Below are positions 1 through 11,850 of a stretch of DNA of 11,850 bases, one piece after another. Where the stretch lies: NCBI GenBank assembly GCA_038888155.1, contig JAWAJB010000032.1, forward strand, positions 1-11,850, written 5' to 3'. This DNA is from Desulfurococcaceae archaeon (GTDB lineage: Archaea > Thermoproteota > Thermoprotei_A > Sulfolobales > Desulfurococcaceae). The notes under the pieces were generated by a model. The model was not told where the DNA came from. It saw only the letters and a list, made by a program, of their open reading frames with translations, and did no database searches. The translations under genes and the position numbers were made by a program. Numbering within the stretch: the first letter of the stretch is position 1; each line of letters begins with the position of its first letter.

Positions 1-216
1 CACGGGAAGCTCCCTCCTCAGAGCTAGGCACCTAGCCTGGATACGGCTCTACCATCACTTGGAGCTGAGCCAGTTAGCTCTTCCCAAGCTAGAAGCGTGA
101 ATAGATAAAAGGTGGGTAGAACAGCTCTGACTCATTATGTGCCCTACGGCTTCAGGAACGTAATTTGAGCCGATAACTATAGATAGGCCCAGCGAGCCTC
201 GCTAACCTCCAAAGCA

Positions 217-618
217 TTAGAGAGTTACCGGCTTGATGCGCGTTAGACCGGGTACCTTTCCGTAGGCTTTGTCGAAAGAAATAATTTTACTCTAGGTTCA
301 GCGCGGTCGCGGCATAGTGCGAGTCAAAGAAAAACAGGTTGAGCGTCTGCCTCAAGTACACGCTCGTAAGCACTACGTCAGGTGTTAGTGCCACGTACTC
401 CACGTTCGGTAGTGCAGCGAGAGCAGCTAAGTCCTTCAGGAGCCTACCCTCCCTCTTCTCGCTCCTGCAGATGGGTTCCACTCGAGTTGGCTGATGCTTG
501 AAATCTCTACGCGGAGTTCACCCCTCCTAAGTTTCTCGAATATCCCCTCAGCAATTTCGTGGTTTGGGTTGTACTCGTTCAAGTATGCGAAGATTACGTT
601 GTTCTCCAGTAGGGGCAT
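217..618 (-). pseudogene. vapC: PIN-domain (VapC-like) toxin, split by two frameshifts
   Basis: Three minus-strand frames join into one ~130-aa PIN protein. The first is MPLLENNVIFAYLNEYNPNHEIAEGIFEKLRRGELRVEISSISQLE (from ATG at 618). A shift at ~480 leads to (M)EPICRSEKREGRLLKDLAALAALPNVEYVALTPDVVLTSVYLRQTLNLFFFDSHYAATALNL. A shift at ~289 leads to KIISFDKAYGKVPGLTRIKPVTL* (TAA at 217-219). The 'S..E', 'FDSHYAATA' and 'IISFD' segments are typical PIN motifs. Confidence 0.85.
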
Positions 619-624
619 GAAGTA

Positions 625-859
625 TCATCTCAGTGCCTCCTCTTCAGCGATGAGCTCGGCTTGCTTTCTCAGTTCTTTAAACGACTTCTCAGTGTTGAAC
701 GCGCCGTGTAGTGCTTTAAACGGGTCTGAGGGTATGGGGACTATTTTGATTTGAGATAATCACCGGTATTTATGACCAGAACCTTTTTCCCAATACCTAG
801 GGGGATACTCTAACCCGCTTCGGGATCGTCAACCTGCTGTCAAGCTCCAGTATGCTCAT
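625..859 (-). pseudogene. AbrB/MazE/SpoVT-type antitoxin (VapB-like), split by two frameshifts
   Basis: The ATG at 859 reads MSILELDSRLTIPKRVRVS. A shift in the C5 run (800-804) leads to LGIGKKVLVINTGDYLK. A shift at a tandem TCAAA duplication (~746-755) leads to IVPIPSDPFKALHGAFNTEKSFKELRKQAELIAEEEALR* (TGA at 625-627), which ends 6 bp before the PIN start. The 'LD...RLTIPK.VR..LGI..KV.V.....L.I.P' pattern is the AbrB swapped-hairpin signature. This gene is not in the ORF track. Confidence 0.8.
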
Positions 860-871
860 CTCATCTTAATA

Positions 872-889
872 ACATTGAATTCAAAATGT
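872..889. promoter_or_regulatory. Palindromic putative autoregulatory operator
   Basis: A perfect 10-bp palindrome TTGAATTCAA (875-884) lies within the near-palindrome ACATTGAATTCAAAATGT, between the TATA box and the antitoxin start. Confidence 0.4.
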
Positions 890-890
890 G

Positions 891-910
891 GGATTTAAAC
901 TTTTATCGCT
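891..910 (-). promoter_or_regulatory. Archaeal BRE/TATA promoter of the antitoxin-toxin operon
   Basis: The minus strand reads AGCGATAAAAG-TTTAAA-TCC: a purine-rich BRE followed by TTTAAA (894-899), ~35 bp upstream of the ATG at 859. Confidence 0.6.
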
Positions 911-1148
911 TTTCCAGTGGTCAGAACCTAAGCGTTAGCACTTCGTCTACCGGCCTGAGTACTTTCGAGAGGAGAGCTTAACCTTAGACGCGTAGAGGTG
1001 TTTTCCAGAGCTGGAAAAGCCTCGAGAAATCTGGCCCTGGTATAGCTGGAAACCCAGATACTCTCGACAGGGAGACTGCGCTTTTCCTAAGCCTTTTCTC
1101 GCTGTGAAGGAAGTTACTACCTGGCGAATCCCGATGCCTCTTTAGCGA

Positions 1149-1244
1149 ATCGAAGCCGGAGTTAACGAGAGCTGAACTCACAATCTCCCTACCGCCTCTG
1201 AGGAACCTTATCCTCAGCTCCGCTCTTACCGCAACGAGGGGCAC
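1149..1244 (-). pseudogene. N-terminal fragment of an archaeal retropepsin/clan-AA aspartyl-protease-like protein (N-S-G variant)
   Basis: The first ~32 codons of ORF 984..1244 read (M)PLVAVRAELRIRFLRGGREIVSSALVNSGFD. This matches the 'V..RI......E....ALV[DN][ST]G[FY]' pattern of this fold. The remainder of the ORF loses any resemblance, which suggests truncation. Confidence 0.4.
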
Positions 1245-2241
1245 CCCTCTTGATGGGGTAGTTATGGCCGAACCTACCCCTCAGCCCACTAGTGCCCGCG
1301 AAGTCCCTCTAGGCTCGCTTTTTGTGATTAATAGTTGTACGTGCGGGCTGGCTTAAAAACGCGAAGTCTTAACACCTCTTTAGCGCTCAATTTCCTGCAA
1401 GCTGCGGGGGCTCTCACACCAGTTTCAAATTCTTTCATACCGCTGATCGGGCTTCCCGTCAGCTCGACGTAGCTGTTCATACGCGCAACAGGCTGGGTAA
1501 AGTCTCGATCACCGGCTGCTGGAGCTTAGGGATCAGAGTGGGTGGAATAAAAACTCCTTTACTCCTATTTTTGCCTAAAGGTGGAAGCAGGAGGTTAGGG
1601 GCTTGGTATGGAGATAATGAACGCGGTACTTCGAGGTCGGACTGGGCTCTGCACTGGGATCTCAGTAAGGCTAGAGATACCAGTGGGGGCTATCCTCGCC
1701 ACGGATGGAATGATGTACGCCGCAAAGGAGTTTAGGCTTTTCGGCTTGGCCTACTGGCCGATTTCAGCCTGTTCCACGATAGCCCCTGCTCACTCCTCGA
1801 CTCCGCTGGCATCGAAAAGCCGTACGTTGACGAACAGCTGATTGAGGAGGGAGCGGGGGCTCGAGCTTTTAAGGGTGCAGCCGAGCTTAACTCGCTAATC
1901 AGATTGATCTCAACGAAAATGTGGCTGGCTTCCAAGGCGGGTACTACTTCTCCTCCGAAACCTTTACCCCCTAGGCACTAAGGATGTGTCAATTCTCGTC
2001 GGAGCCAGAGGATGTGAGAGCATGGCTTAACAGCAAGGGGATGGCGCCCTCAGCGACACAGGGAGCTAAAGGTATCAAGAGTCCATTACTGGTTTCCAGC
2101 ACACCTGCGAAAGAGGGGGAACGAAAACTGCTAAGTACTAAAAAATAGGATCCAGCGCTCAGCTTCGGCTTGTACAAGAGGAACGCGAGCAAGAGGCTGA
2201 GTACCTCTGTGGCAAGTTGATCTGGGTAGCATAATTATTTG

Positions 2242-2274
2242 AAAGTAAAAAAGAAAGAAAAGGGGAAGAAAAGA
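2242..2274 (-). terminator. Oligo-U/pyrimidine-rich archaeal terminator
   Basis: Immediately after the TAA at 2280, the minus strand reads TTCTTTTCTTCCCCTTTTCTTTCTTTTTTACTTT. Confidence 0.7.
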
Positions 2275-2279
2275 ATCCT

Positions 2280-4301
2280 TTAACCTCCTGCCACTCGAGC
2301 AATGAACTCAGGGTAGGCGAAGGTGAAGAAGGCTATGAAAGCCGTGATTATGACTATAGCGCCATAGCCAGCGCAGTAACCAGCGGAAAACGGTATCACG
2401 TACTTATCATGCAGCCTAGCACCACCAATTCTTATCACTATGAACTTTAGGAGGAATGCTACTAGCCACGTCGGCCACCACCAGTGGGGGAGTACCATCA
2501 TCCCTATCGGGTTCAGGAAGAACCATGGGAACCTTAACCTAGCCCAGTAAACGAGGAAGGTGAAAATAACCGCTGCAGCTACATAGCCGATCTCCTCCGT
2601 TAACGGGATCGGTGGTGGAGTACCGTAAGAGAAACTCCATGGACCACCAAGGTTCCACACGTGGTACTCGATCGCTCTACTCCTAGCGTACCCCCCAACG
2701 TACGCGTACCACCACGGCCACGTCAAGTACCCAAATATCGAGGTTGTGATTATCGTTATCAGCGAAACGATAAGGACGTCCCTAGCTAACGTTTTCGTAT
2801 TGGCAGCCAGCCTATATGATTTGAAGTGATGATGCATAGCGAGCGAAGACATCCTGGCTCCGCCCATACCAAAGCTGTAGTAGAACGCCATCCCGGGTAG
2901 AGCCCTAGGGTCGGGTGCCGGACCCCACGCACCAACCGCTTGGCCTATACCATATGCAAGAATGTTATAAAATGGTACGCTTGGCATGAACTCCTGCGCC
3001 TCACCCATCATCCGTGTCCAGCCCCACATAAAGAGCACATAAAATGGCACTATAACCACTGCAAAAATGGGGTTGACACCCCCTGCGACCATTAAAGCTA
3101 CTAACACTATCCACGCGAGTATACCACCCCAGACGATAAGGCGATACGGTACTCCCTCCTCCTCTGCCGGAGCCTTACCTCCGCCTCTAAACCCGGCTCT
3201 AAGTACGCTTAGAATATGCTGCCTGTAGTTGATCAGCATCCAAAGGCCGAGGCCTATCGATAAGTGCCATGAGAACCTCATCCACTTCCACGGGCCAACA
3301 GTCCAAGCGAACTCAGTGCCAGTTGAGCCTGGAGTGTAAGGCAGGAAGCCTGCCCTTACGCCGATCGTCTGGTAAAGCACACCCCAGATGAACCACCAAA
3401 GCACGGCTGTCGCTAACACATCGAGCGACATAAACTGCCCAACGAATACGTCTGTGATGTATAGGGCACCTGCAAACGTTGCTCCGGGGAGAATTCCGCT
3501 CGTAATTGCTAGCAAGTCTACTGGGAATTGATGTATGTACCAGAGCCATGGGGAGGGTAAAAAGGCATTTATCACTATTGGGGCACTAGATAATGCTCCC
3601 ACAAGGAAACCGATCCAGAAGATCCTTGTGTCTAACGAAGCTAAATTGAAAAGTCTTCGCCTCTTATCCTCGTCAATTGTGTAGTAACTTTCCACTATGT
3701 AGACTGTCGGCATAATACCGGGGAATGGCATCCTTTCCACTTCTATGAGGGGTTTCCGCAGGGGGAAGGCCCATAGAAGGCCTCCGCAGAACAGTGCTAT
3801 TGCCCAAATCATCCAGAAAACCATCGAGGGGAGCCACACGGCGAAATTAAAATGACCACCGTAGTAGAAGGCATTTAACTGATCCTCTGCTAGCGGCGCT
3901 ATATAGCTCGGGAATAGTTTCCTGTAAACTGCGCTGTAAGGCTCCATAAGATTCCCGAAAATGAAATGCGCGTAGTTCCAGGTTATAAGCGGTACACTCG
4001 TCCAATAATGCAAGCCGTAACTAACATACATGCTGCCAGCAGTGATAAAGTTGATAACTGTGAATAACGTCATTTCCTGCGGCGATATAGAAACCCTCCC
4101 CCTGGTAGCCTTCTCAAGCGCATAAAAGAGTATCAAGTACCATATCATGGGCAATGGTATTATGGCAGGCCACAGCCACCAGCGTCCAAGGCTCTGCATC
4201 CAATTGTTAAAGAAGAAGGCGATGGGAGGGAAGATTATCGCATAAGCGATAATCCAAGGCTTCAACCCAGAAACCCGTTCAACAGCTTCACGCGCTCCCA
4301 T
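2280..4301 (-). CDS. OPT-superfamily-like polytopic membrane protein (resembles the DUF6785/DUF6784-type putative peptide transporters)
   Basis: Intact 673-aa ORF that is hydrophobic throughout, with many candidate TM helices. It carries IEVERMPFP (cf. the OPT 'L.FP' motif), ISPQE near the N-terminus and a C-terminal RLRFPWFFLNPIG...AFLLKFIVIRIGG. It has an upstream TATA box and a downstream terminator. The DUF assignment is from recall and needs a Pfam check. Confidence 0.8.
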   Translation of the reverse strand: MGAREAVERVSGLKPWIIAYAIIFPPIAFFFNNWMQSLGRWWLWPAIIPLPMIWYLILFYALEKATRGRVSISPQEMTLFTVINFITAGSMYVSYGLHYWTSVPLITWNYAHFIFGNLMEPYSAVYRKLFPSYIAPLAEDQLNAFYYGGHFNFAVWLPSMVFWMIWAIALFCGGLLWAFPLRKPLIEVERMPFPGIMPTVYIVESYYTIDEDKRRRLFNLASLDTRIFWIGFLVGALSSAPIVINAFLPSPWLWYIHQFPVDLLAITSGILPGATFAGALYITDVFVGQFMSLDVLATAVLWWFIWGVLYQTIGVRAGFLPYTPGSTGTEFAWTVGPWKWMRFSWHLSIGLGLWMLINYRQHILSVLRAGFRGGGKAPAEEEGVPYRLIVWGGILAWIVLVALMVAGGVNPIFAVVIVPFYVLFMWGWTRMMGEAQEFMPSVPFYNILAYGIGQAVGAWGPAPDPRALPGMAFYYSFGMGGARMSSLAMHHHFKSYRLAANTKTLARDVLIVSLITIITTSIFGYLTWPWWYAYVGGYARSRAIEYHVWNLGGPWSFSYGTPPPIPLTEEIGYVAAAVIFTFLVYWARLRFPWFFLNPIGMMVLPHWWWPTWLVAFLLKFIVIRIGGARLHDKYVIPFSAGYCAGYGAIVIITAFIAFFTFAYPEFIARVAGG

Positions 4302-4383
4302 CGTCTCTCATAAATCAAATATGTGACCCCTTTAAATATTTAACTCTAGAAAACTTAAAATAGGAATAGAGCCATTCCATCCT
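4302..4383. promoter_or_regulatory. Divergent promoter region with back-to-back TATA boxes
   Basis: 82-bp AT-rich gap. On the plus strand, AGAAAA-CTTAAAAT (4348-4361) is centred ~27 bp upstream of the GTG at 4384, with no SD, consistent with a leaderless mRNA. On the minus strand, TTTAAA (4336-4331) lies ~30 bp upstream of the ATG at 4301. A 12-bp palindrome TTAAATATTTAA sits at 4332-4343. Confidence 0.7.
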
Positions 4384-7300
4384 GTGAGAGGTGTTAAAGA
4401 AGAAGTAGTACAATGGTTGCTTATTGCGACATGCGTGCTAATAGCCACATCACCCTTGGCGGACTCGATTACGTCACCTTTGATAAGCTCGGGAACTCAG
4501 ATTAGAGAATATAGGAGTCTTTCCGCTGACGATTTCAAAAAAGTTATCAATATGATTGATTATGACAACATTTTTAAACATATATCCTCTCTTGTAGCAT
4601 ACGAATCCCGTGTAACAGGTTACGAAGGTTGCGAAAAAAGCGCAGAATACATCGCGAACATTTTTAAGACTCTTAATTTAACGGTGGAAATCCAGGAATA
4701 TAAGGTTCTATCACCAATCGATAAAGGTTCGGCAATACTCTATTCCGAGAACGGTAGCGTAAATGAAATCCCTGCGTATGCTATTTGGCCCAATTATGTT
4801 GTAACGGGTTTCGTCCCCTCTTCAAAGCCGATCAGAGGAAGGCTACTCTACGTCGGCAAAGGGGATCTAAAAGACTTTAATGGAGAGGAAGTAGAGGGGA
4901 GTATTGTATTGATGGACTTCAACAGCGGAGACAACTGGAAGAATGCCATGAAGCTCGGAGCCAAAGCAGTTATATTCTTGGAGCCGATGGAAACATCATA
5001 TAGGGAAGCCATATCGAAGTTCTCGTTAATCCCGGTGCATTTCCCAAGGCTGTACGTTCAGCGGCGGTACGCAGCTAAATTACTGGAACTCGCGCTGAAG
5101 AGAGCAGAAGTAGAAGTTTACTCAAACATGAAGTGGGAAGAGGTTACAGCTAAAAATGTAATCGGGATAATCGAAGGAAGCGAGCGTCCGAACGATGTTA
5201 TAATCGTGGCGGCTCACTACGACACATGGTCGGTCGTACCTAAGCTCGCGCCAGGAGCTGACGAGGCGGTCTCAGTGGCTAGCTTGCTCGAGCTAGCTAG
5301 AATTTTCTCCATCTTGCGCCCAAAGTATACTATCTGGTTCGTCGCTCTCTCAGGTCATTGGTTAGCTCTCGCAGGGGCGAGAGAGTTTGTTGAAAACTAC
5401 TTTTTCGACTGGAGCGTCTTGAACGGAAGCAAGAAACTATGGGCTTTTATAGCTCTGGATTTCTCGACTGATAGCACCAAGCTTAACCTCCTGTACGCTG
5501 GACACTTTTATGAGTACACAGGTGGTGCGATAACTCCAATTGAAACAAGGTGGACAAGGTGGCTTGAGCCGAAGATTTTCAGGGAAGTTCTCCCGCGACT
5601 CGAGGAAGCTACTGGGAGGAGGTACGACGTTGAATCCGGGTTTATGGGTATCTATGGGTGGTGGGGCTCGGTGTACGGCCCCTACATGTTGGACAGTGAG
5701 CCGTTCGCTATAGCCCACGGTTTAGGCTTCGCCATTAGAACGGTAGGTTTGAGAGAACACTGGGGTCATCCTCTTAGTACGGTTGAAAAAGTTCAGCTGA
5801 AGAACCTCAAGCCCCAGCTGGAGGTTGCAGCTGCCATAGTCTTCGCGCTGGCTGAGGAAGGCGTGGGCATGAGATGGGAGCATGTGTCACCAGCGAGAGC
5901 TTTGTACGTTGCTGGAGGGGCGGAGGTAGCAGGTTACATCACATTACACGGGAGGGTGCTACAGTTTAACTATAGCAAGGGATGGTACGACCCCGTACCA
6001 AACGCTATAGTTGCTATATTGAGAGGGGGCCCTGGGTACACGTCGTATCCGTTTTCCAGAATCCTTGTGAAAAGCGACGAGAAAGGTGAGTTCATAGTTC
6101 ACGGCATAGGTGGGCTCTTCGCGGTGTCTCACGCCGGTTGGGGTGGTGCACAGATATACGTTGAAGCTTACAAGATTGATGATGAAACCGGTCTCATAGT
6201 TTATGCCCCTGACCTCGGGCAGTACGGCCAAATGCAGATACCCTTCTACTACCAGCCAGATAGACATCCTTTCAACGTCTCTACAGTGGTTTTCGAGTGC
6301 TCTTCAATCGTTATTTTTGACGTAGGCGCTCCAATGATGTTAGCTCCAAAAATCTTCTTCGACCCTCGTTTCGAGAGCTGGCACTATGGTGCATGGCATT
6401 CGATTCCATTCTTAATCCAAGTATTGGACTTTAACACGCTTGGGCCCTTCTTGAATTGGGGATCCTCCTACCTCCCATTTGACGACATAGCTGTTGTTTT
6501 TGTTCCCCCGAATTCACGGGCAGCGATCCTCTATAAGTTAACAGCTGCATATAGGAACGTTGGCATTCTGGTTAACGCCTCTGAGTGGAGCCCAGAGGGC
6601 GAGGGGATACATGTAAGTGAGAGAACCCAACTGGTGATACCCTTGACCGCTTATAGGTTCGCCGAGGAGGCTTATTTACTGAGCTTAAATCGTTACAGCA
6701 AGCTAACGTCGAGATTCGTGCTAAGCTACGTGGCTGAGCAGCACCTTTCGGAAAGCTCTAAGTGGCTTAATGAAGCTAGGAAAGCTCTCGCTGAGAGAAG
6801 GTACGATGCAGCGTACACTTACGCTAAGTTAGCGTGGATACGCGCGTTTTACGCTTATGAAGAGGTCATGAGGCTGTTGTATGATACCGTCAACGTTAAC
6901 TCTATTTTCCTAATTGTAGCGGTAATATTTGCGGCATTATTCGAAACTCTTGTAATAGGGGCTTCGGGAAAGAGTAAAATGGTGAGCTTAACGGTAATTC
7001 TTATAACGTTGATCATTCTCTTTTACTTCGTTCATCCGGCACCTCAAGTAGCATCTGTTTATTGGATGGCGCCCTTAAGCGTTGGCATACTGCTTCTGCT
7101 CTTGTTTGTTTCACTTCTCTTCATGAGCAGAGCAAGAGAAATAACTTTAAGTTACAGAGAGGCCCTTGCCGGAAAACACTTTTTCGTGGAAGTTTCCAGG
7201 GTAGATCTAATGTTAACGCTTTTTTCAACATCTATACAGTTTATGAAAAAGAGGAAAATTAGAACCATTTTGACTTTAATTATTGTTGTTACGGTAATAT

Positions 7301-8931
7301 TCTCATTGCTGAGTTTAACTTCAACCGTATACACTACTGCTGCAACACTGACTAGACCAACGATTTACAGCCCATCTTATAAAGGGATACTCATAACCAG
7401 GCCTACTCCACTCAAGGAACAGGGAACCACCATCCCTGGAGGGGCGGTAGTACCTATCCTAAGCTATGGCGATCTAGACCTGATAAAAACTCTGATAAGA
7501 TCTGACAAATTCTCTGTTAGGGTATGGTGGTATCCGCAATCAGTTCGTTCTAAGGCAGTTTATGCAACATTGGTAGGGAGGAACGGCTCCTACAATATCA
7601 AAGCTATTTTAGGCCTTTCGCCAGACGAAGTCCTTGACTTGCGTCAAGCCATAATAAATGGTTCTTGGCTTCCGAGCTTCGCCGAGAATGTCTGCATCCT
7701 TCCCGTAAACATCGCTAAGTCCCTCGGCGTTAGTGTTGGGGATCAAGTATGGCTGGAAGGTTACAATCTCAATTTAACAGTTGTCGGTATATTAGACCCA
7801 CGAGTAGCTAATGTCATCAAGGACTTAGATGCGTACCCCGTAACTCCGCCTAGCCCTGATTCGATCGCCGCGCTTTTGAGGGGCTTTATTCAGGAGCAGC
7901 AATGGTTACCACTTTCATTCGAGGAAGTAATTGTAGTCCCGTACCAAATACTTTTAGATAAGGGCGGCTTTATCGCAAGCGTCGCAGCTCAGGTAGAAGA
8001 TTTCGAGGCATTAAAGGAGAAGGCGGCAGAACTTGCTATGTACTTCGAACTCATACGTATATACATCTCTGATGGAAAAGATGTCTTAATGGTTAGCCCA
8101 TTCCTCGCCTTCGGTTTTTATGGGTGGGCTAATCTTGCGGTACCGCTTTTAATAGCTGCTTTAATGCTGACTAACGTCATTTTAGGTAATGTAAGAGAGC
8201 GGCGTAGGGAGGTTGAAACATTTTCAGCGCTTGGTCTAGCTCCGAGGGAAGTTAGTTGGTTTTTCGTTGCAGAAGCACTGGTATTCTCGCTAATTGGCTA
8301 CGTGATCGGCTATCTACTAGGCCTGGTATCGAATATAATACTGTTTAAGTCTAAGCTTTTACCTCCTAACTTCATTGTAAATATTTCATCACTTGCGACA
8401 ATACTATCATTGATGATTGGCTTACTTGCAATACTGGCACCTAGCGTATACCCAGCGATAATGGTGTCGCGAACCGTAGTGCCATCCCTCGAGAGGAAGT
8501 GGAAAGTTCCTACTAAGCCAAGGGGGGACGAGTGGGAGATTCCGCTTCCTTATGCAGCGGTAAGTAAGGAGGAAGCACTCGGATTCCTTGAATTTTTGAG
8601 AGAATTCTTTGATTTTCACAGGAAGGAGTCGGTGGAGGTTTTCATCACAGATGATATATCATTCGACATGGGCAATCTACAGCTAGTAGTCGTATCCAGG
8701 TTGCAACCACTTGAAAGCGGCGTCGTCCAGAAGGCAACGTTTTCCGCTATATACTTGCGGGGAGAGGGGAGGTACACATTCTTGGCGAATGTAAAGTTGC
8801 TAAGCGGAAAGCGAGAAGCTTGGCTAGCGAAAGTTCCCGCGTTTATTGATTCTGTTAGGAAGCAAATGTTGATGTGGAGAGGTTTAACGCCTACCGAAAG
8901 GGCTAAGTACGTAGCTAAAGTTGTAAGTTGA
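4384..8931 (+). CDS. Secreted PA/M28-peptidase-fold ectodomain fused to a MacB/FtsX-type ABC permease (1515 aa)
   Basis: Signal peptide at ~1-26. M28 N-terminal motif SRVTGYEGCEKSAEYI. PA domain GRLLYVGKGDLKDFNGEEVEGSIVLM...AMKLGAKAVIF. M28 core NVIGIIEG...IIVAAHYD...PGADE..SVASLLELAR. Beta-sandwich motif PVPNAIV...KSDEKGEFIVHGI. Three TM helices follow, then the MacB TM1 (KRKIRTILTLIIVV, ~aa 960) and the MacB extracytoplasmic core (NGSWL...CILPVNIAKSLGVSVGDQV...LTVVGIL). FtsX motif VRERRREVETFSALGLAPREVSWFFVAEA at ~aa 1270. Confidence 0.9.
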   Translation: MRGVKEEVVQWLLIATCVLIATSPLADSITSPLISSGTQIREYRSLSADDFKKVINMIDYDNIFKHISSLVAYESRVTGYEGCEKSAEYIANIFKTLNLTVEIQEYKVLSPIDKGSAILYSENGSVNEIPAYAIWPNYVVTGFVPSSKPIRGRLLYVGKGDLKDFNGEEVEGSIVLMDFNSGDNWKNAMKLGAKAVIFLEPMETSYREAISKFSLIPVHFPRLYVQRRYAAKLLELALKRAEVEVYSNMKWEEVTAKNVIGIIEGSERPNDVIIVAAHYDTWSVVPKLAPGADEAVSVASLLELARIFSILRPKYTIWFVALSGHWLALAGAREFVENYFFDWSVLNGSKKLWAFIALDFSTDSTKLNLLYAGHFYEYTGGAITPIETRWTRWLEPKIFREVLPRLEEATGRRYDVESGFMGIYGWWGSVYGPYMLDSEPFAIAHGLGFAIRTVGLREHWGHPLSTVEKVQLKNLKPQLEVAAAIVFALAEEGVGMRWEHVSPARALYVAGGAEVAGYITLHGRVLQFNYSKGWYDPVPNAIVAILRGGPGYTSYPFSRILVKSDEKGEFIVHGIGGLFAVSHAGWGGAQIYVEAYKIDDETGLIVYAPDLGQYGQMQIPFYYQPDRHPFNVSTVVFECSSIVIFDVGAPMMLAPKIFFDPRFESWHYGAWHSIPFLIQVLDFNTLGPFLNWGSSYLPFDDIAVVFVPPNSRAAILYKLTAAYRNVGILVNASEWSPEGEGIHVSERTQLVIPLTAYRFAEEAYLLSLNRYSKLTSRFVLSYVAEQHLSESSKWLNEARKALAERRYDAAYTYAKLAWIRAFYAYEEVMRLLYDTVNVNSIFLIVAVIFAALFETLVIGASGKSKMVSLTVILITLIILFYFVHPAPQVASVYWMAPLSVGILLLLLFVSLLFMSRAREITLSYREALAGKHFFVEVSRVDLMLTLFSTSIQFMKKRKIRTILTLIIVVTVIFSLLSLTSTVYTTAATLTRPTIYSPSYKGILITRPTPLKEQGTTIPGGAVVPILSYGDLDLIKTLIRSDKFSVRVWWYPQSVRSKAVYATLVGRNGSYNIKAILGLSPDEVLDLRQAIINGSWLPSFAENVCILPVNIAKSLGVSVGDQVWLEGYNLNLTVVGILDPRVANVIKDLDAYPVTPPSPDSIAALLRGFIQEQQWLPLSFEEVIVVPYQILLDKGGFIASVAAQVEDFEALKEKAAELAMYFELIRIYISDGKDVLMVSPFLAFGFYGWANLAVPLLIAALMLTNVILGNVRERRREVETFSALGLAPREVSWFFVAEALVFSLIGYVIGYLLGLVSNIILFKSKLLPPNFIVNISSLATILSLMIGLLAILAPSVYPAIMVSRTVVPSLERKWKVPTKPRGDEWEIPLPYAAVSKEEALGFLEFLREFFDFHRKESVEVFITDDISFDMGNLQLVVVSRLQPLESGVVQKATFSAIYLRGEGRYTFLANVKLLSGKREAWLAKVPAFIDSVRKQMLMWRGLTPTERAKYVAKVVS

Positions 8932-10868
8932 GCACGGTGGTAAGCATGGAAAGTAGGGGGACTCTTTACAAGCCAGGTTTCACTTGGAGAGCGGCACTTG
9001 CGATTCTTTTCGCTTCGGTAACGATTCTTCCAGTTAACTTATACCTGTCACTTGTTGCTGGTGCTACAATAGCTGCAGCCGCATCCTATATAACGCTCAT
9101 ACTGTTCACTGAGGTAGCGCTGTTAATGGGCTCCTCCATCTCTAAGCAAGAGGCGTTCATAATTTTCACAATGTCGTCCGTCGTGGCGGCGAGCCCCGTA
9201 TACATAAACTTTGTCTATAGGTCGTTTTTCGTAGAATCACCCATAACGCGTATTTTCAAGGATCCTTATACTGGTAAACCTTTGCCTGAGGTTATACCGA
9301 GTTTTTGGGCGCCCCCTCCTTCTTCGCCAGCACATACTGTTAGGTCGTTCCTTCACCCAGACTGGATAGCTCCACAGCTCATCTCCCACTTCCAGTATGG
9401 CATACTATTCATAATTCAGGAGATAGCACTAACGATTATCTGTAGCATGCTGTATAACGAGGTGGAAAGGCTACCTTTCCCGTTAGCAGACGTGACAAGC
9501 CAGCTGATAACTACGATCGTTGAGCGACCACGCGAGAGAATGGGCATGTTCCTCGCCGCCACACTAGCTAGCGGTTTTTACTCGTTCCTAGCGTACGGGG
9601 TACCAACTCTCACTTACGGCTTGTTTGGCGTACAAATGCAACTCGTACCAGTTCCATGGATAGATTTAACGACGGGGTACCTAGGTGTAGAGAAAGTGCT
9701 ACCGGGGGCTATCCTAGGAATTTCAACTGATCCGATGACTTTCGTAGCTGGCTTTATATTACCGCTTAGAACCCTAACCTACATGTTGATCGGTTCGGTT
9801 ACTGTGTGGATCTTGGGGAACTGGATGGCTTTGACGGTCTTCCGCGACTTTTTCCCAGAGTGGGCAAATGAGTGGAGCAGGGGCATGAGCATCCCCCTTG
9901 TGTTACAGCGCTCTATGCTTAGAGTGTGGTTAGCACCGCACATAGGAGTTACAGTTGGGTTAGCATTGGCCACGCTGGCTTCAAGTTCCAGCTCGATAAT
10001 AAAGTCACTAAAAACCCTGGCGAGAGTCAAAGAAGTCGGAAGTTATTCCTCCCTACCAACACTGCTGGCTATGTACCTCGGCGCGACATTTCTCTCCGTG
10101 CTCATCTTTCACTATCTCGTTCCGGACTTCCCTGTATGGCTCGCCGCTGCTCTCTCGATAGGTTTCAGTTTTCTGAACGCGCTTGTCGCGACCAGAGTGA
10201 GAGGAGAGACAACAATAACTATTTCAATCCCTTATGTATGGTGGGGGGCTATACTACTTTCAGGCTACCCTAAGGTCGATGCTTTCTTCTTCTCTCCTGT
10301 CATCGGTGGCAGCTTAGCACCTTCGTGGGTGGAATCGCTTCGAGTGGCTGAGCTAACGGAAACTAAACAGACTGACTTTTTCAAAGCATTCGTGTACGCA
10401 TTCGCCCTTTATACGGTCTTCAGCTTCATTTTCGTCTCCTTCTTCTGGATGATGGCGCCTATACCATCATCCGTTTACCCATGGACAATAATACAGTGGC
10501 CGATACAAGCGATGATAGAGGGGATGTGGTACACGCGGCAGATAACGGTAAGAGCCGACCTAATTCTCGGCTTTGCAGCGTTAGCCTTCGCTCTAGGGGT
10601 TCTCCAGAAAGCACTTAGAGCCATCGGAATACCTTTCGACGCGATAGCGTTATTAACGGGAACCCAGGTTATTCCAACGTCCACGATAACGATGCTTCTG
10701 GGCGGGGTCGTTGGTCACTACTTGCTGAGGAGGGCAATGGGGAAGGAAAGGTGGGAGTATTACAGGCTGACTATCGCTGCAGGTGTAGCAACTGGAATGG
10801 GACTAGTTGTCGGAGTTTTGTCAGCATTCGCCCTAATATTTAAGACAGCTTGGATTAAACCGTACTAA
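8928..10868 (+). CDS. OPT-superfamily (oligopeptide transporter-like) membrane protein
   Basis: Intact 646-aa hydrophobic ORF. The N-terminal GFTWRAALAILFA...NLYLSLVAG, SKQE and EVERLPFPLA segments are OPT-like motifs. The start is either the TTG at 8928, overlapping the upstream TGA (TTGA), or the ATG at 8946, which has GGTGG 5 nt upstream. Confidence 0.85.
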   Translation: MSTVVSMESRGTLYKPGFTWRAALAILFASVTILPVNLYLSLVAGATIAAAASYITLILFTEVALLMGSSISKQEAFIIFTMSSVVAASPVYINFVYRSFFVESPITRIFKDPYTGKPLPEVIPSFWAPPPSSPAHTVRSFLHPDWIAPQLISHFQYGILFIIQEIALTIICSMLYNEVERLPFPLADVTSQLITTIVERPRERMGMFLAATLASGFYSFLAYGVPTLTYGLFGVQMQLVPVPWIDLTTGYLGVEKVLPGAILGISTDPMTFVAGFILPLRTLTYMLIGSVTVWILGNWMALTVFRDFFPEWANEWSRGMSIPLVLQRSMLRVWLAPHIGVTVGLALATLASSSSSIIKSLKTLARVKEVGSYSSLPTLLAMYLGATFLSVLIFHYLVPDFPVWLAAALSIGFSFLNALVATRVRGETTITISIPYVWWGAILLSGYPKVDAFFFSPVIGGSLAPSWVESLRVAELTETKQTDFFKAFVYAFALYTVFSFIFVSFFWMMAPIPSSVYPWTIIQWPIQAMIEGMWYTRQITVRADLILGFAALAFALGVLQKALRAIGIPFDAIALLTGTQVIPTSTITMLLGGVVGHYLLRRAMGKERWEYYRLTIAAGVATGMGLVVGVLSAFALIFKTAWIKPY

Positions 10869-10886
10869 CAACCATGATAGATCTTT

Positions 10887-10893
10887 AGGTGAT
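10887..10893 (+). promoter_or_regulatory. Shine-Dalgarno site
   Basis: AGGTGAT lies just upstream of the GTG at 10897. This is typical of an internal gene in an archaeal operon. Confidence 0.7.
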
Positions 10894-10896
10894 CAA

Positions 10897-11850
10897 GTGA
10901 ACTCGTGGGAGCGCGTAGTAAGGGCTATGCAGCACGAGACCCCGGATAGAATACCTATCTACGAGATGCACATACCGCCGAAAATAGCAGCAGTAATACT
11001 GGGTAAGAGGCCGGATGAGATCTTCCTCCACAACCCTGAGGCATTCTACAATCTAGTCATCTCCGCTGGTGCGAAAAACGTCGATTTAGGCAAGGTCAAT
11101 AGGAAGATAGCCGATGAGCTGCTGACGTTGTACTCGAAACTCGGGTTGGACTGGATACGCGTTGTTTGGGCTCACGTGAGAGTGCCAAGCGTAGAGAGGG
11201 TTGACGAACGCACATACAGGGTGGATGGGAGGTTAGTTGTGCGTGGCGGAGAGACGCTGTGGGAGAGGGAGGCCTTGTGGGATCTCTGCGAGGCCTACGC
11301 TTATGACCCAGATCAAGTGAAAAGGTACTGCGAGAATGAGCGCGTCGAAGTCGATGAGAGGGTTTTCGATATACTGAGGTTCTTGGCTAGTAAGGTTAAA
11401 GGTAAGATGTTCCTCTCGTTCGACTCTGATGGAACTTGGGGGCCCATAGTTTCCTCTCCACCATTGCTTAGGAAGGTCCTCGTATGGGCGTACAAGAGGC
11501 CGGATGTGGTTGAGGCCATCATAAGTTACTACACACGCATCGCTATAGAGTACGGGAAAGCAGCTATCGATGAGGGGGCCGATGCAATCCAGCTGTGCGT
11601 CGATTACGGGAACAAGAATGGGCCTTGGCTCCCCCCAGCCTTGTTCAGGAGGTTCGTGAAACCAGCGCTACGGCAGCACGTCGATGCATTCAAGAAGAGG
11701 GGTGCCTTCGTTGTCTTACACTCGGACGGAAACATAATGCCTTTGCTCCCGGATATCGTGGAAGCGGGGGTAGACGCTTACCAGGGTATCGACGTTATAG
11801 CGGGCATGTCGCTTAAAGAGGTAAAGGAGAAGTTCGGCGATAAACTGTGC
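10897..11850 (+). CDS. Uroporphyrinogen decarboxylase / MtaA-CmuA methyltransferase superfamily protein (3'-truncated by the window edge)
   Basis: Manual translation from the GTG at 10897 is open for 318 codons to the window end: MNSWERVVRAMQHETPDRIPIYE...AIDEGADAIQLCVDYGNKNGPWLPPALFRRFVKP...VVLHSDGNIMPLLPDIVEAGVDAYQGIDVIAGMSLKEVKEKFGDKLC. The 'ER......E.PDR.P', 'D.G...G....P..FR.F..P' and 'HSDG' motifs mark the URO-D-like TIM barrel. It is absent from the ORF track because there is no stop codon in the window. Confidence 0.9.
   Translation, partial: MNSWERVVRAMQHETPDRIPIYEMHIPPKIAAVILGKRPDEIFLHNPEAFYNLVISAGAKNVDLGKVNRKIADELLTLYSKLGLDWIRVVWAHVRVPSVERVDERTYRVDGRLVVRGGETLWEREALWDLCEAYAYDPDQVKRYCENERVEVDERVFDILRFLASKVKGKMFLSFDSDGTWGPIVSSPPLLRKVLVWAYKRPDVVEAIISYYTRIAIEYGKAAIDEGADAIQLCVDYGNKNGPWLPPALFRRFVKPALRQHVDAFKKRGAFVVLHSDGNIMPLLPDIVEAGVDAYQGIDVIAGMSLKEVKEKFGDKLC

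Follow-up and report, generated by a model that had tools for sequence, protein, structure and literature searches.

A widespread archaeal gene cassette joins a giant M28-like FtsX permease to two OPT-like permeases

Introduction

An 11,850-nucleotide contig of a Desulfurococcaceae archaeon (JAWAJB010000032.1 of assembly GCA_038888155.1) encodes a giant protein in which a peptidase-like ectodomain is joined to a MacB/FtsX permease module, and the gene for this fusion stands between two genes for OPT-like permeases, with a URO-D-like gene after the second of them. We refer to this stretch of 11.85 kb, which is the entire contig G000:C32 of the bin G000, as the window, and to the four genes as gene 1 (a DUF6785/DUF6784 or D85-type permease), gene 2 (the fusion), gene 3 (an OPT-type permease) and gene 4 (URO-D/MtaA-like). 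What kind of machine do these genes encode, if they encode one at all, and what would drive it? The initial annotation of this DNA proposed an uptake and processing system, in which the ectodomain captures or processes a surface substrate, the MacB module drives its conformational cycle, the OPT-like pair forms the import path and what has been imported is then worked on by the URO-D-like enzyme. We have followed this proposal through related loci, structural models and the distribution of candidate partner genes.

Results

The fusion and the two permeases recur as a cassette

Related loci of up to 20 kb were picked by a match to the fusion protein alone, giving 41 loci from 29 genomes, and their open reading frames (ORFs) were called and labelled by phmmer, clustering and Pfam. 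One or other of the permeases adjoins the fusion gene in 36 of the 41 loci (OPT-type in 31/41, D85-type in 14/41). Anywhere in the locus, that is within 20 kb, the OPT-type gene is present in 38/41, the D85-type in 35/41, both in 34/41 and neither in 2/41, the last two both being from genus g90. The OPT-type gene lies directly downstream of the fusion gene and on the same strand in 18/41 loci, with gaps of -50 to +33 bp. The idea that the fusion with its two OPT-like neighbours is a conserved unit is thus borne out by these counts, and the expectation that its homologues occur together with both OPT-like types and with an ABC ATPase is answered in two ways, the permeases being present as described and an ABC ATPase adjoining the fusion gene in 0/41 loci.

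The layout seen in the window is not chance: the 41 loci from 29 other genomes show the gene set again, and the bin itself has another copy (G000:C125:3-5357). The second cassette is 43% identical and has the same order, with a divergent D85-type gene, the fusion gene (240-4808, minus strand) and the start of a downstream OPT-type gene (3-194, minus strand). Pairwise distances of the three proteins were compared over 33 loci, giving Mantel r values of 0.89, 0.94 and 0.91, with 0/2000 permutations as high, and paralogous cassettes of one genome pair with the same foreign cassettes for all three proteins. Because the three proteins diverge in step and the paralogous cassettes pair alike, the cassette is inherited as a unit.

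An initial scan for related loci with the fusion protein alone returned no relative. In the phylum sample, fusion matches at E <= 1e-15 are present in 81/401 genomes, often in two or more copies; they are abundant in families f18 (16/17 genomes), f21 (8/8), f25 (5/6) and f28 (7/8), and rare in the bin's own family f1 (2/16). Among the genomes of 41 relatives, full-length fusion matches come from the bin (C32 and C125) and G017 only, and 15 other genomes of the same genus give weak FtsX-domain matches or none. Database searching yielded 219 fusion homologues at E <= 1e-10, the nearest being 69% identical, under the names 'hypothetical protein', 'M28 family peptidase', 'FtsX-like permease' and 'ABC-type antimicrobial peptide transport permease', and homologues are also found in several bacterial phyla. 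The window is an ordinary copy of a widespread, undescribed system. In one genome (G399:C6:88008-104807, loci L041 and L042) a single contig carries two full cassettes, not more than 17 kb apart.

The ectodomain keeps the M28 fold and has lost the catalytic Glu-Glu pair

The M28 fold is well preserved, with a VIA alignment of 269/291 residues to the Aeromonas aminopeptidase (1rtq_A; Z 30.7, root-mean-square deviation [rmsd] 2.3 A) and a Foldseek E of 2e-25 for the PA/M28 domain against 2ek8. Alignments to 2ek8 and 2anp place H325-W326 of the window protein at the catalytic Glu-Glu pair, which we take to correspond to Glu151/Glu152 of the Aeromonas enzyme, the catalytic Glu followed by the metal-ligand Glu. 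Across 42 family members the catalytic-Glu position is occupied by His (37), Tyr (4) or Phe (1), and the metal-ligand-Glu position by Trp (25), Tyr (12) or other residues (5); Glu occurs at neither in any of them. The co-catalytic metal ligands of M28 enzymes (His, Asp, Asp, His) are not conserved in the family either, the equivalent of His97 being kept in 21/42 members and that of Asp117 in 13/42. By motif position alone, D359 (32/42) and E439 (40/42) may be the remaining two metal-ligand positions.

Because the catalytic Glu-Glu pair is lost, the M28 domain is unlikely to process substrate, and the proposal that the ectodomain 'processes a surface substrate' gives way to one in which the PA/M28 domain most likely binds something instead of cutting it. 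The match lists of the fold searches are filled by the M28 part, and residues 495-840 of the ectodomain (about 350 residues) were barely probed by them.

The giant protein is a type VII ABC permease

The layout of the fusion protein was derived from hydropathy and from two AlphaFold models, covering residues 28-860 (predicted local distance difference test [pLDDT] 90.4) and 850-1515 (pLDDT 83.8). Pfam identifies Peptidase_M28 (PF04389; 48.7 bits, cut-off 21.3), MacB_PCD (PF12704; 30.1 bits, cut-off 27) and FtsX (PF02687, residues 1255-1364; 58.8 bits, cut-off 25.5), and a PA domain at 19.6 bits, below its cut-off of 23.9. Hydropathy and the models place a cytoplasmic linker between three extra helices that follow the ectodomain and the first transmembrane helix (TM1) of the permease module. 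The module itself has the order TM1 (residues 961-979), extracytoplasmic core domain, and TM2-TM4 (residues 1244-1352), with a short helix between TM2 and TM3. Residues 940-1370 adopt the MacB/LolC/YtrF/FtsX fold, with a Foldseek E of 1.6e-12 to MacB (5gko), and VIA comparison of the C-terminal half gives Z 17.5 to YtrF (9o9x_C, 342 residues aligned), Z 16.5 to MacB (5nik_J), and Z 13.3 with rmsd 3.9 to the MacB periplasmic domain (3ftj_A). The giant protein is therefore an ATP-binding cassette (ABC) permease of type VII and of the MacB/FtsX fold.

In solved type VII members a short cytoplasmic TM2-TM3 helix and its motif dock the ATPase. The fusion has such a helix (model residues 425-433), and the TM2-TM3 loop carries a motif, ERxREI...G..P, that is close to invariant in the family (E1272 in 37/42, R1273 in 40/42, G1284 in 41/42 and P1287 in 41/42). 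Among the best-conserved parts of the fusion are also the C-terminal 145-residue domain and the motif that precedes it, PSLERKWK.PTKP.GD.WEIPLP, whose residues are kept in 35-41 of 42 sequences. This domain has a weak likeness to KA1, BamC-N and Aha1-type folds (Z 8.7, rmsd 2.9, 104 aligned residues, 3ost_A), which may be just a common fold arrangement. Fold comparison excludes it as an ATPase, and a search of the ESM Atlas with the C-terminal domain gave no usable match.

Two variants of the architecture were observed among the homologues. Bacterial proteins of 2335-2474 residues (P0109, P0112, P0116, P0118 and P0119; P0116 is labelled Poribacteria by its source) have an N-terminal LysM domain ahead of the M28/FtsX architecture. 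Shorter fusion-family proteins of 669-1008 residues, apparently without the M28 ectodomain, are present in loci L032, L053, L016, L029, L044, L045 and L052, often beside an OPT-type gene and sometimes alongside a full-length fusion in one locus.

The two flanking permeases are ancient paralogues

Gene 1 matches DUF6785 (57.5 bits, cut-off 25) and DUF6784 (30.9 bits, cut-off 26.4), has 11 hydrophobic segments by hydropathy, and has relatives of which 27/30 match DUF6785 and 21/30 match DUF6784; it does not itself match the Pfam OPT profile (PF03169), and 1/30 of its relatives does. Gene 3 matches this profile at 33.0 bits (cut-off 25.8) over positions 130-622 of 623, and at E <= 0.001 just 12/31 of the OPT-type relatives do so. 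The D85-type and OPT-type proteins are full-length homologues (hhalign probability 99.9%, E 6e-37, 597 columns), and their tree separates into two clean clades of 38 (OPT-type) and 41 sequences with a Shimodaira-Hasegawa-like approximate likelihood ratio test (SH-aLRT) value of 100. The two types are ancient paralogues, and the pair encoded by genes 1 and 3 is predicted to share the OPT fold; searches of PDB sequences with both permease profiles gave 0 matches. Two genes of 339 and 296 residues downstream of the g90 fusion were considered as OPT-like and rejected (hhalign probability 0.1%).

A candidate motor is encoded at other loci

There is no ABC_tran domain in the window, and an ABC ATPase is found somewhere within the locus, never adjoining the fusion gene, in 10/41 loci. 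The complete genome G083 has 43 ABC_tran matches, and the 15 regions containing its 16 ATPase frames of <=288 residues were inspected. One of these, an operon at a distance of about 9 kb from the fusion gene, encodes a 188-residue protein consisting of a four-helix FtsX domain only, followed by two LolD/MacB-type ATPases; the candidate ATPases score best against the LolD, MacB, YbbA, DevA and FtsE models. Orthologs of this small FtsX protein are found in 77/400 sampled genomes (E 1e-18 to 1e-30, frames of about 195-270 residues). The small FtsX and the full-length fusion are co-distributed, with both present in 65 of the 400 genomes, the fusion only in 5, the small FtsX only in 12 and neither in 318, an association that the shared ancestry of related genomes inflates, so that its Fisher value is overstated. 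Shorter fusion-family proteins are present in 6 of the 12 genomes with the small FtsX only. The two genes also covary within families: in f1 only g25 and G017 have either, and both are missing from g83 in f34 and from g102 and g149 in f37. The small FtsX/ATPase pair is also found in G017, which is the third genome of f1 to carry the fusion.

The gene following the small FtsX encodes a highly conserved ATPase in 13/20 loci (E 1e-111 to 1e-122 against the G083 protein). Across families this ATPase keeps about 70% identity, a much stronger conservation than that of the fusion. Genus g90 departs from the adjacency of fusion and OPT genes; there a 19-kb block (G133:C1:1373000-1392999) contains genes for a PqqD-like protein, the small FtsX, a 1072-residue fusion-family permease, both a D85-type and an OPT-type permease and this conserved ATPase, and the spacing is identical in G156 and G308. 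The PqqD-like protein beside the small FtsX in g90 clusters with the product of a PqqD-like gene inside the f1 fusion operon. Taken together, the co-distribution, the g90 block, the PqqD-like bridge and the conserved TM2-TM3 loop suggest that the small FtsX with its LolD/MacB-type ATPases is most likely the motor of the cassette, encoded elsewhere.

A 280-283-residue protein beside the f1 PqqD-like gene was also considered as an ATPase and rejected; it has no Walker A motif and no Pfam match, and does not resemble the TIM-barrel gene found after the small FtsX in g90. At loci L072 and L076 the neighbours of the small FtsX/ATPase pair are genes for an RPA-like OB-fold protein, Alba, a DNA polymerase small subunit, Elf1 and PcrB, and clustering finds homologues of these neighbours in other small-FtsX loci (4-5 loci per cluster; for example L073, L075, L084 and L085).

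Flanking genes and the URO-D-like gene

Of 144 nearest flanking genes selected around the 41 loci, 142 were scanned, two long ones being left out. Carbohydrate-related genes account for 23/142, in 18/41 loci, a count that has no genome-wide baseline and comes from loci that are related and not independent. They encode GFO/IDH/MocA oxidoreductases (9), TrmB regulators (3), glycoside hydrolases of families GH2, GH4 and GH57 (two of the last), NamZ, sulfatases (2), a galactokinase, a SIS protein, a GT2 glycosyltransferase and an epimerase. Peptidase-like genes number 3/142, and a corrinoid/methyl-transfer set (URO-D, MTTB, B12-radical SAM) 10/142. As a lead, not a result, this context suggests glycan-derived substrates more than plain peptides.

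In three f1 loci (L013, L050 and L051) the operon upstream of the fusion gene codes for a protein of 606-612 residues that is exported and anchored at its C-terminus, for two small uncharacterised proteins, and for a PqqD-like protein and a starch-synthase-like glycosyltransferase, and in the same loci a GH57 gene follows the OPT-type gene. A paper on Fervidibacter sacchari (PMC11535203) reports M28 peptidases and an OPT transporter from a metaproteome, with nothing there that links them to the cassette.

The URO-D match of gene 4 (PF01208) scores 77.9 bits (cut-off 23.9) and covers only residues 192-316; the best NCBIfam models are methylcobamide:coenzyme M methyltransferases, at 54.8 bits versus a cut-off of 244. 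A URO-D gene lies within 20 kb of the fusion in 5/41 loci, and the genomes concerned carry 31, 18, 25 and 16 URO-D matches, such that a random 20-kb stretch of them is estimated to hold one in about 17-25% of cases. Since 5/41 is roughly the random expectation for genomes that have 16-31 copies, the link is unsupported, and the URO-D-like gene, which had been cast as a working part of the system, is probably an incidental neighbour. The window copy is the sole URO-D match in the bin. G107, G345, G321 and G129 are genomes of ~2 Mb in which the URO-D/MtaA-like family has grown to 16-31 copies each, and MTTB-like and B12-radical-SAM genes are frequent near cassettes.

Gene layout of the window and placement of the contig

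Four long, intact ORFs are present in the window with the divergent spacer and tight spacing originally described, the fourth being open at the contig end (Table 1); NCBIfam gives no equivalog for any of the four. A reading of the sequence finds a TATA-like element, TTTAAATATTTAA, at 4331-4343 inside the divergent spacer, as part of a putative promoter. The TTG start of gene 3 at 8928 overlaps the fusion TGA by 4 bp. An alternative ATG start at 8946, with a 14-bp gap and GGTGG upstream, matches the family N-terminal consensus better and is more likely to be the start of gene 3. A strong Shine-Dalgarno-like site, AGGTGATC, occupies the 28-bp gap ahead of the gene 4 GTG at 10897.

Table 1. Coordinates of the genes and protein domains in the window
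Feature	Window position	Residues	Strand	Length and basis
Gene 1, DUF6785/DUF6784 permease (D85-type), polytopic, OPT superfamily	2280-4301		-	673 residues; Pfam
Divergent spacer	4302-4383			82 bp; sequence reading
Gene 2, giant PA/M28 + MacB/FtsX fusion (FUS)	4384-8931		+	1515 residues; Pfam, hydropathy
Fusion, N-terminal anchor		8-26	+	Hydropathy, model
Fusion, ectodomain		~27-840	+	Hydropathy, model
Fusion, probable pseudo-peptidase domain of PA/M28 fold	4510-5865	43-494	+	Model, Foldseek, VIA
Fusion, remaining ectodomain: beta-rich part and long helical stalk	5866-6903	495-840	+	Model secondary structure
Fusion, three extra transmembrane helices before the MacB module	6904-7122	841-913	+	Hydropathy, model helices
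Fusion, MacB/FtsX (type VII ABC) permease module	7264-8493	961-1370	+	Pfam, model, Foldseek, VIA
Fusion, conserved cytoplasmic C-terminal alpha/beta domain	8515-8892	1378-1503	+	Model, weak VIA likeness
Gene 3, OPT-type permease	8928-10868		+	646 residues from TTG; Pfam OPT
Gene 4, URO-D/MtaA-like, truncated by contig end	10897-11850		+	318 residues; Pfam

The first 2.3 kb of the window (1-2279) contains no ORF of >86 residues. There is no tRNA, Rfam or Pfam match in this part, and there are no direct repeats and only three short imperfect inverted repeats; no copy of it is present elsewhere in the bin, nor does it hold a remnant of genes known from related loci.

The bin looks mixed, at 2.42 Mb with 6.4% contamination, and genomes of the same genus are 0.9-1.5 Mb. 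The nearest relatives of all three cassette proteins are in families f18 and f45 and not in f1, and the one URO-D gene of the bin is on this contig. The tetranucleotide correlation of C32 to contigs C1, C3 and C4 is 0.68-0.71, versus 0.90-0.98 when these three are compared with each other, values too equivocal to place C32 inside or outside the bin. C32 may be binned wrongly or be a transferred island, either of which would keep the motor from being checked in this bin.

Discussion

We judge with moderate confidence that genes 1-3 form one cassette of a conserved import system, made up of an FtsX giant, two OPT-like permeases and a motor encoded elsewhere. The motor would be the ~200-residue four-helix FtsX partner with LolD/MacB-type ATPases, joined by a PqqD-like protein in some lineages. 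ATP-driven movements of the FtsX pair would be passed on to the ectodomain, which would capture an oligomeric substrate and hand it to the OPT-fold pair for import. Such a scheme presumes that the proteins form a physical complex, that transport is inward, and that the window copy too would use ATP. A more specific version, which we offer only tentatively, is a hybrid importer in which the giant and a minimal FtsX, two LolD-like ATPases, a dead-peptidase receptor and an OPT-fold heterodimer take up glycan-derived oligomers; it is perhaps common, and we would say this just as hesitantly, to many uncultured archaea and several bacterial phyla.

Several observations weigh against motor-driven import. 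To our knowledge, the type VII ABC systems that have been studied export, extract or signal, and none imports. Of the genomes with a fusion, five have no small FtsX, and 12 with the small FtsX have no full-length fusion, the overall association being swollen by common descent. The small FtsX/ATPase pair is usually found among housekeeping genes and could serve another FtsX protein. In the bin, no ortholog of the small FtsX or of its ATPase was found, and the ATPase that comes nearest shares 47% identity and has an ordinary ~400-residue FtsX gene next to it. Most OPT-type relatives fall short of the Pfam OPT profile, and the carbohydrate count is without a baseline. No fused fusion-OPT protein was found among the longer proteins matching gene 3 or its alignment; of 1206 permease profile matches, the 150 best are all 443-700 residues long with no fusion-OPT chain, which is weak evidence as it concerns the best matches only.

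The same components might instead work outwards, as an export or envelope-assembly machine by which a surface glycan, a lipid-linked oligosaccharide or a surface protein is moved out or extracted from the membrane. We think this unlikely, as we do the role that it would give to the dead peptidase domain, that of holding cargo or a partner enzyme on the model of FtsEX-EnvC, LolCDE and YbbAP-TesA. It is consistent with the nearest folds, which are all exporters, extractors or mechanotransducers, with the exported anchored protein and starch-synthase-like glycosyltransferase of the f1 operon, with glycosyltransferase and sulfatase neighbours at other loci, and with the housekeeping surroundings of the small FtsX/ATPase pair. 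However, the OPT family members studied so far are, as far as we know, importers, many of the neighbouring genes have catabolic roles (glycoside hydrolases, GFO/IDH/MocA oxidoreductases, a sugar kinase and TrmB regulators), and many genomes have two or more divergent cassettes, which is typical rather of nutrient transporters with different specificities. A different departure from motor-driven import would do without ATP altogether, the giant serving passively as receptor or scaffold to a proton-driven heterodimer of OPT fold and its FtsX module being a relic anchor. The small FtsX/ATPase pair would then belong to another system. The missing ATPase, in the window and next to the fusion at all 41 loci, would be explained, as would the failure to find the small FtsX and its ATPase in the bin, and the conserved domain on the cytoplasmic side of the C-terminus is not an ATPase. 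Against this reading stand the nearly invariant TM2-TM3 loop motif and helix, the co-distribution (65/5/12/318), the presence of all parts in one g90 block and the PqqD-like gene that bridges both loci; we regard both the passive giant and the unrelated pair as improbable.

We give hardly any credence to the view that the cassette captures, trims and takes up peptides, with M28 as an active aminopeptidase and the URO-D-like enzyme acting on the imported product. It draws on the Pfam names M28 and OPT, on the position of the URO-D-like gene 28 bp downstream with its strong Shine-Dalgarno-like site, and on H278, D293 and D359 of the window protein, a trio that could ligate a single metal site. 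In this protein His replaces the catalytic Glu and Trp the ligand Glu, the metal ligands are unconserved in the family, URO-D genes are present in 5/41 loci of genomes with 16-31 copies, and peptidase-like genes make up only 3/142 of the flanking genes, all of which speak against it.

Comparison with known systems places the preferred reading, motor-driven import by the cassette, among several families without matching any of them. With the type VII ABC systems (MacAB-TolC, LolCDE, FtsEX-EnvC, YtrEF, YbbAP-TesA, HrtBA and BceAB) the fusion shares the four-helix FtsX domain, the MacB-type core domain between TM1 and TM2 and the TM2-TM3 motif, and a giant paired with a small permease would resemble the uneven pair LolC/LolE. 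It differs by ~930 extra N-terminal residues, comprising the pseudo-peptidase ectodomain and three helices, and by the 145-residue C-terminal domain, and the cassette differs in having no ATPase inside and in its constant pairing with two OPT-fold permeases. The permeases are related to the OPT/Yellow-Stripe-like transporters (PF03169, TC 2.A.67), to which gene 3 is assigned above the cut-off across nearly the full profile, with gene 1 as its full-length paralogue; compared with classical OPTs they are very distant (12/31 and 1/30 relatives reach PF03169) and are in every case a pair of the two paralogue types next to an FtsX giant. Sequence and fold searches with the ectodomain match, among others, transferrin receptor 1 (TfR1), GCPII and nicalin, which share the PA and M28 fold at the outside of a membrane protein. 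TfR1 and nicalin, whose ectodomains serve as non-catalytic receptors or scaffolds, have lost catalytic residues, and GCPII is an active relative. Unlike TfR1 and nicalin, the fusion is prokaryotic, is one chain with an ABC-type permease and has ~350 further ectodomain residues. The C-terminal half of gene 4 matches the URO-D/MtaA-type methyltransferases (PF01208), and it scores far below every equivalog cut-off.

Literature searches on DUF6785, DUF6784, PF20581, PF20580, or on FtsX together with PqqD and OPT, found no paper, and judging by abstracts those on FtsX and OPT, on type VII ABC systems in archaea, and on the OPT family with MacB describe no such system. The statement that no known machine combines FtsX and OPT therefore stands as far as abstracts allow, no paper that joins them having been found. 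If the reading put forward here is true, the cassette would be the first link of the mechanotransmission (type VII) ABC class with OPT-fold secondary transporters. The apparently missing motor now has a concrete candidate, which could be cloned along with the cassette, as from the single block of g90, and the URO-D-like gene can leave the model. If the system is a nutrient importer, metabolic reconstructions for archaea of sediments and hot springs in which these genes pass for peptidases and peptide transporters may misassign the carbon sources of these organisms.

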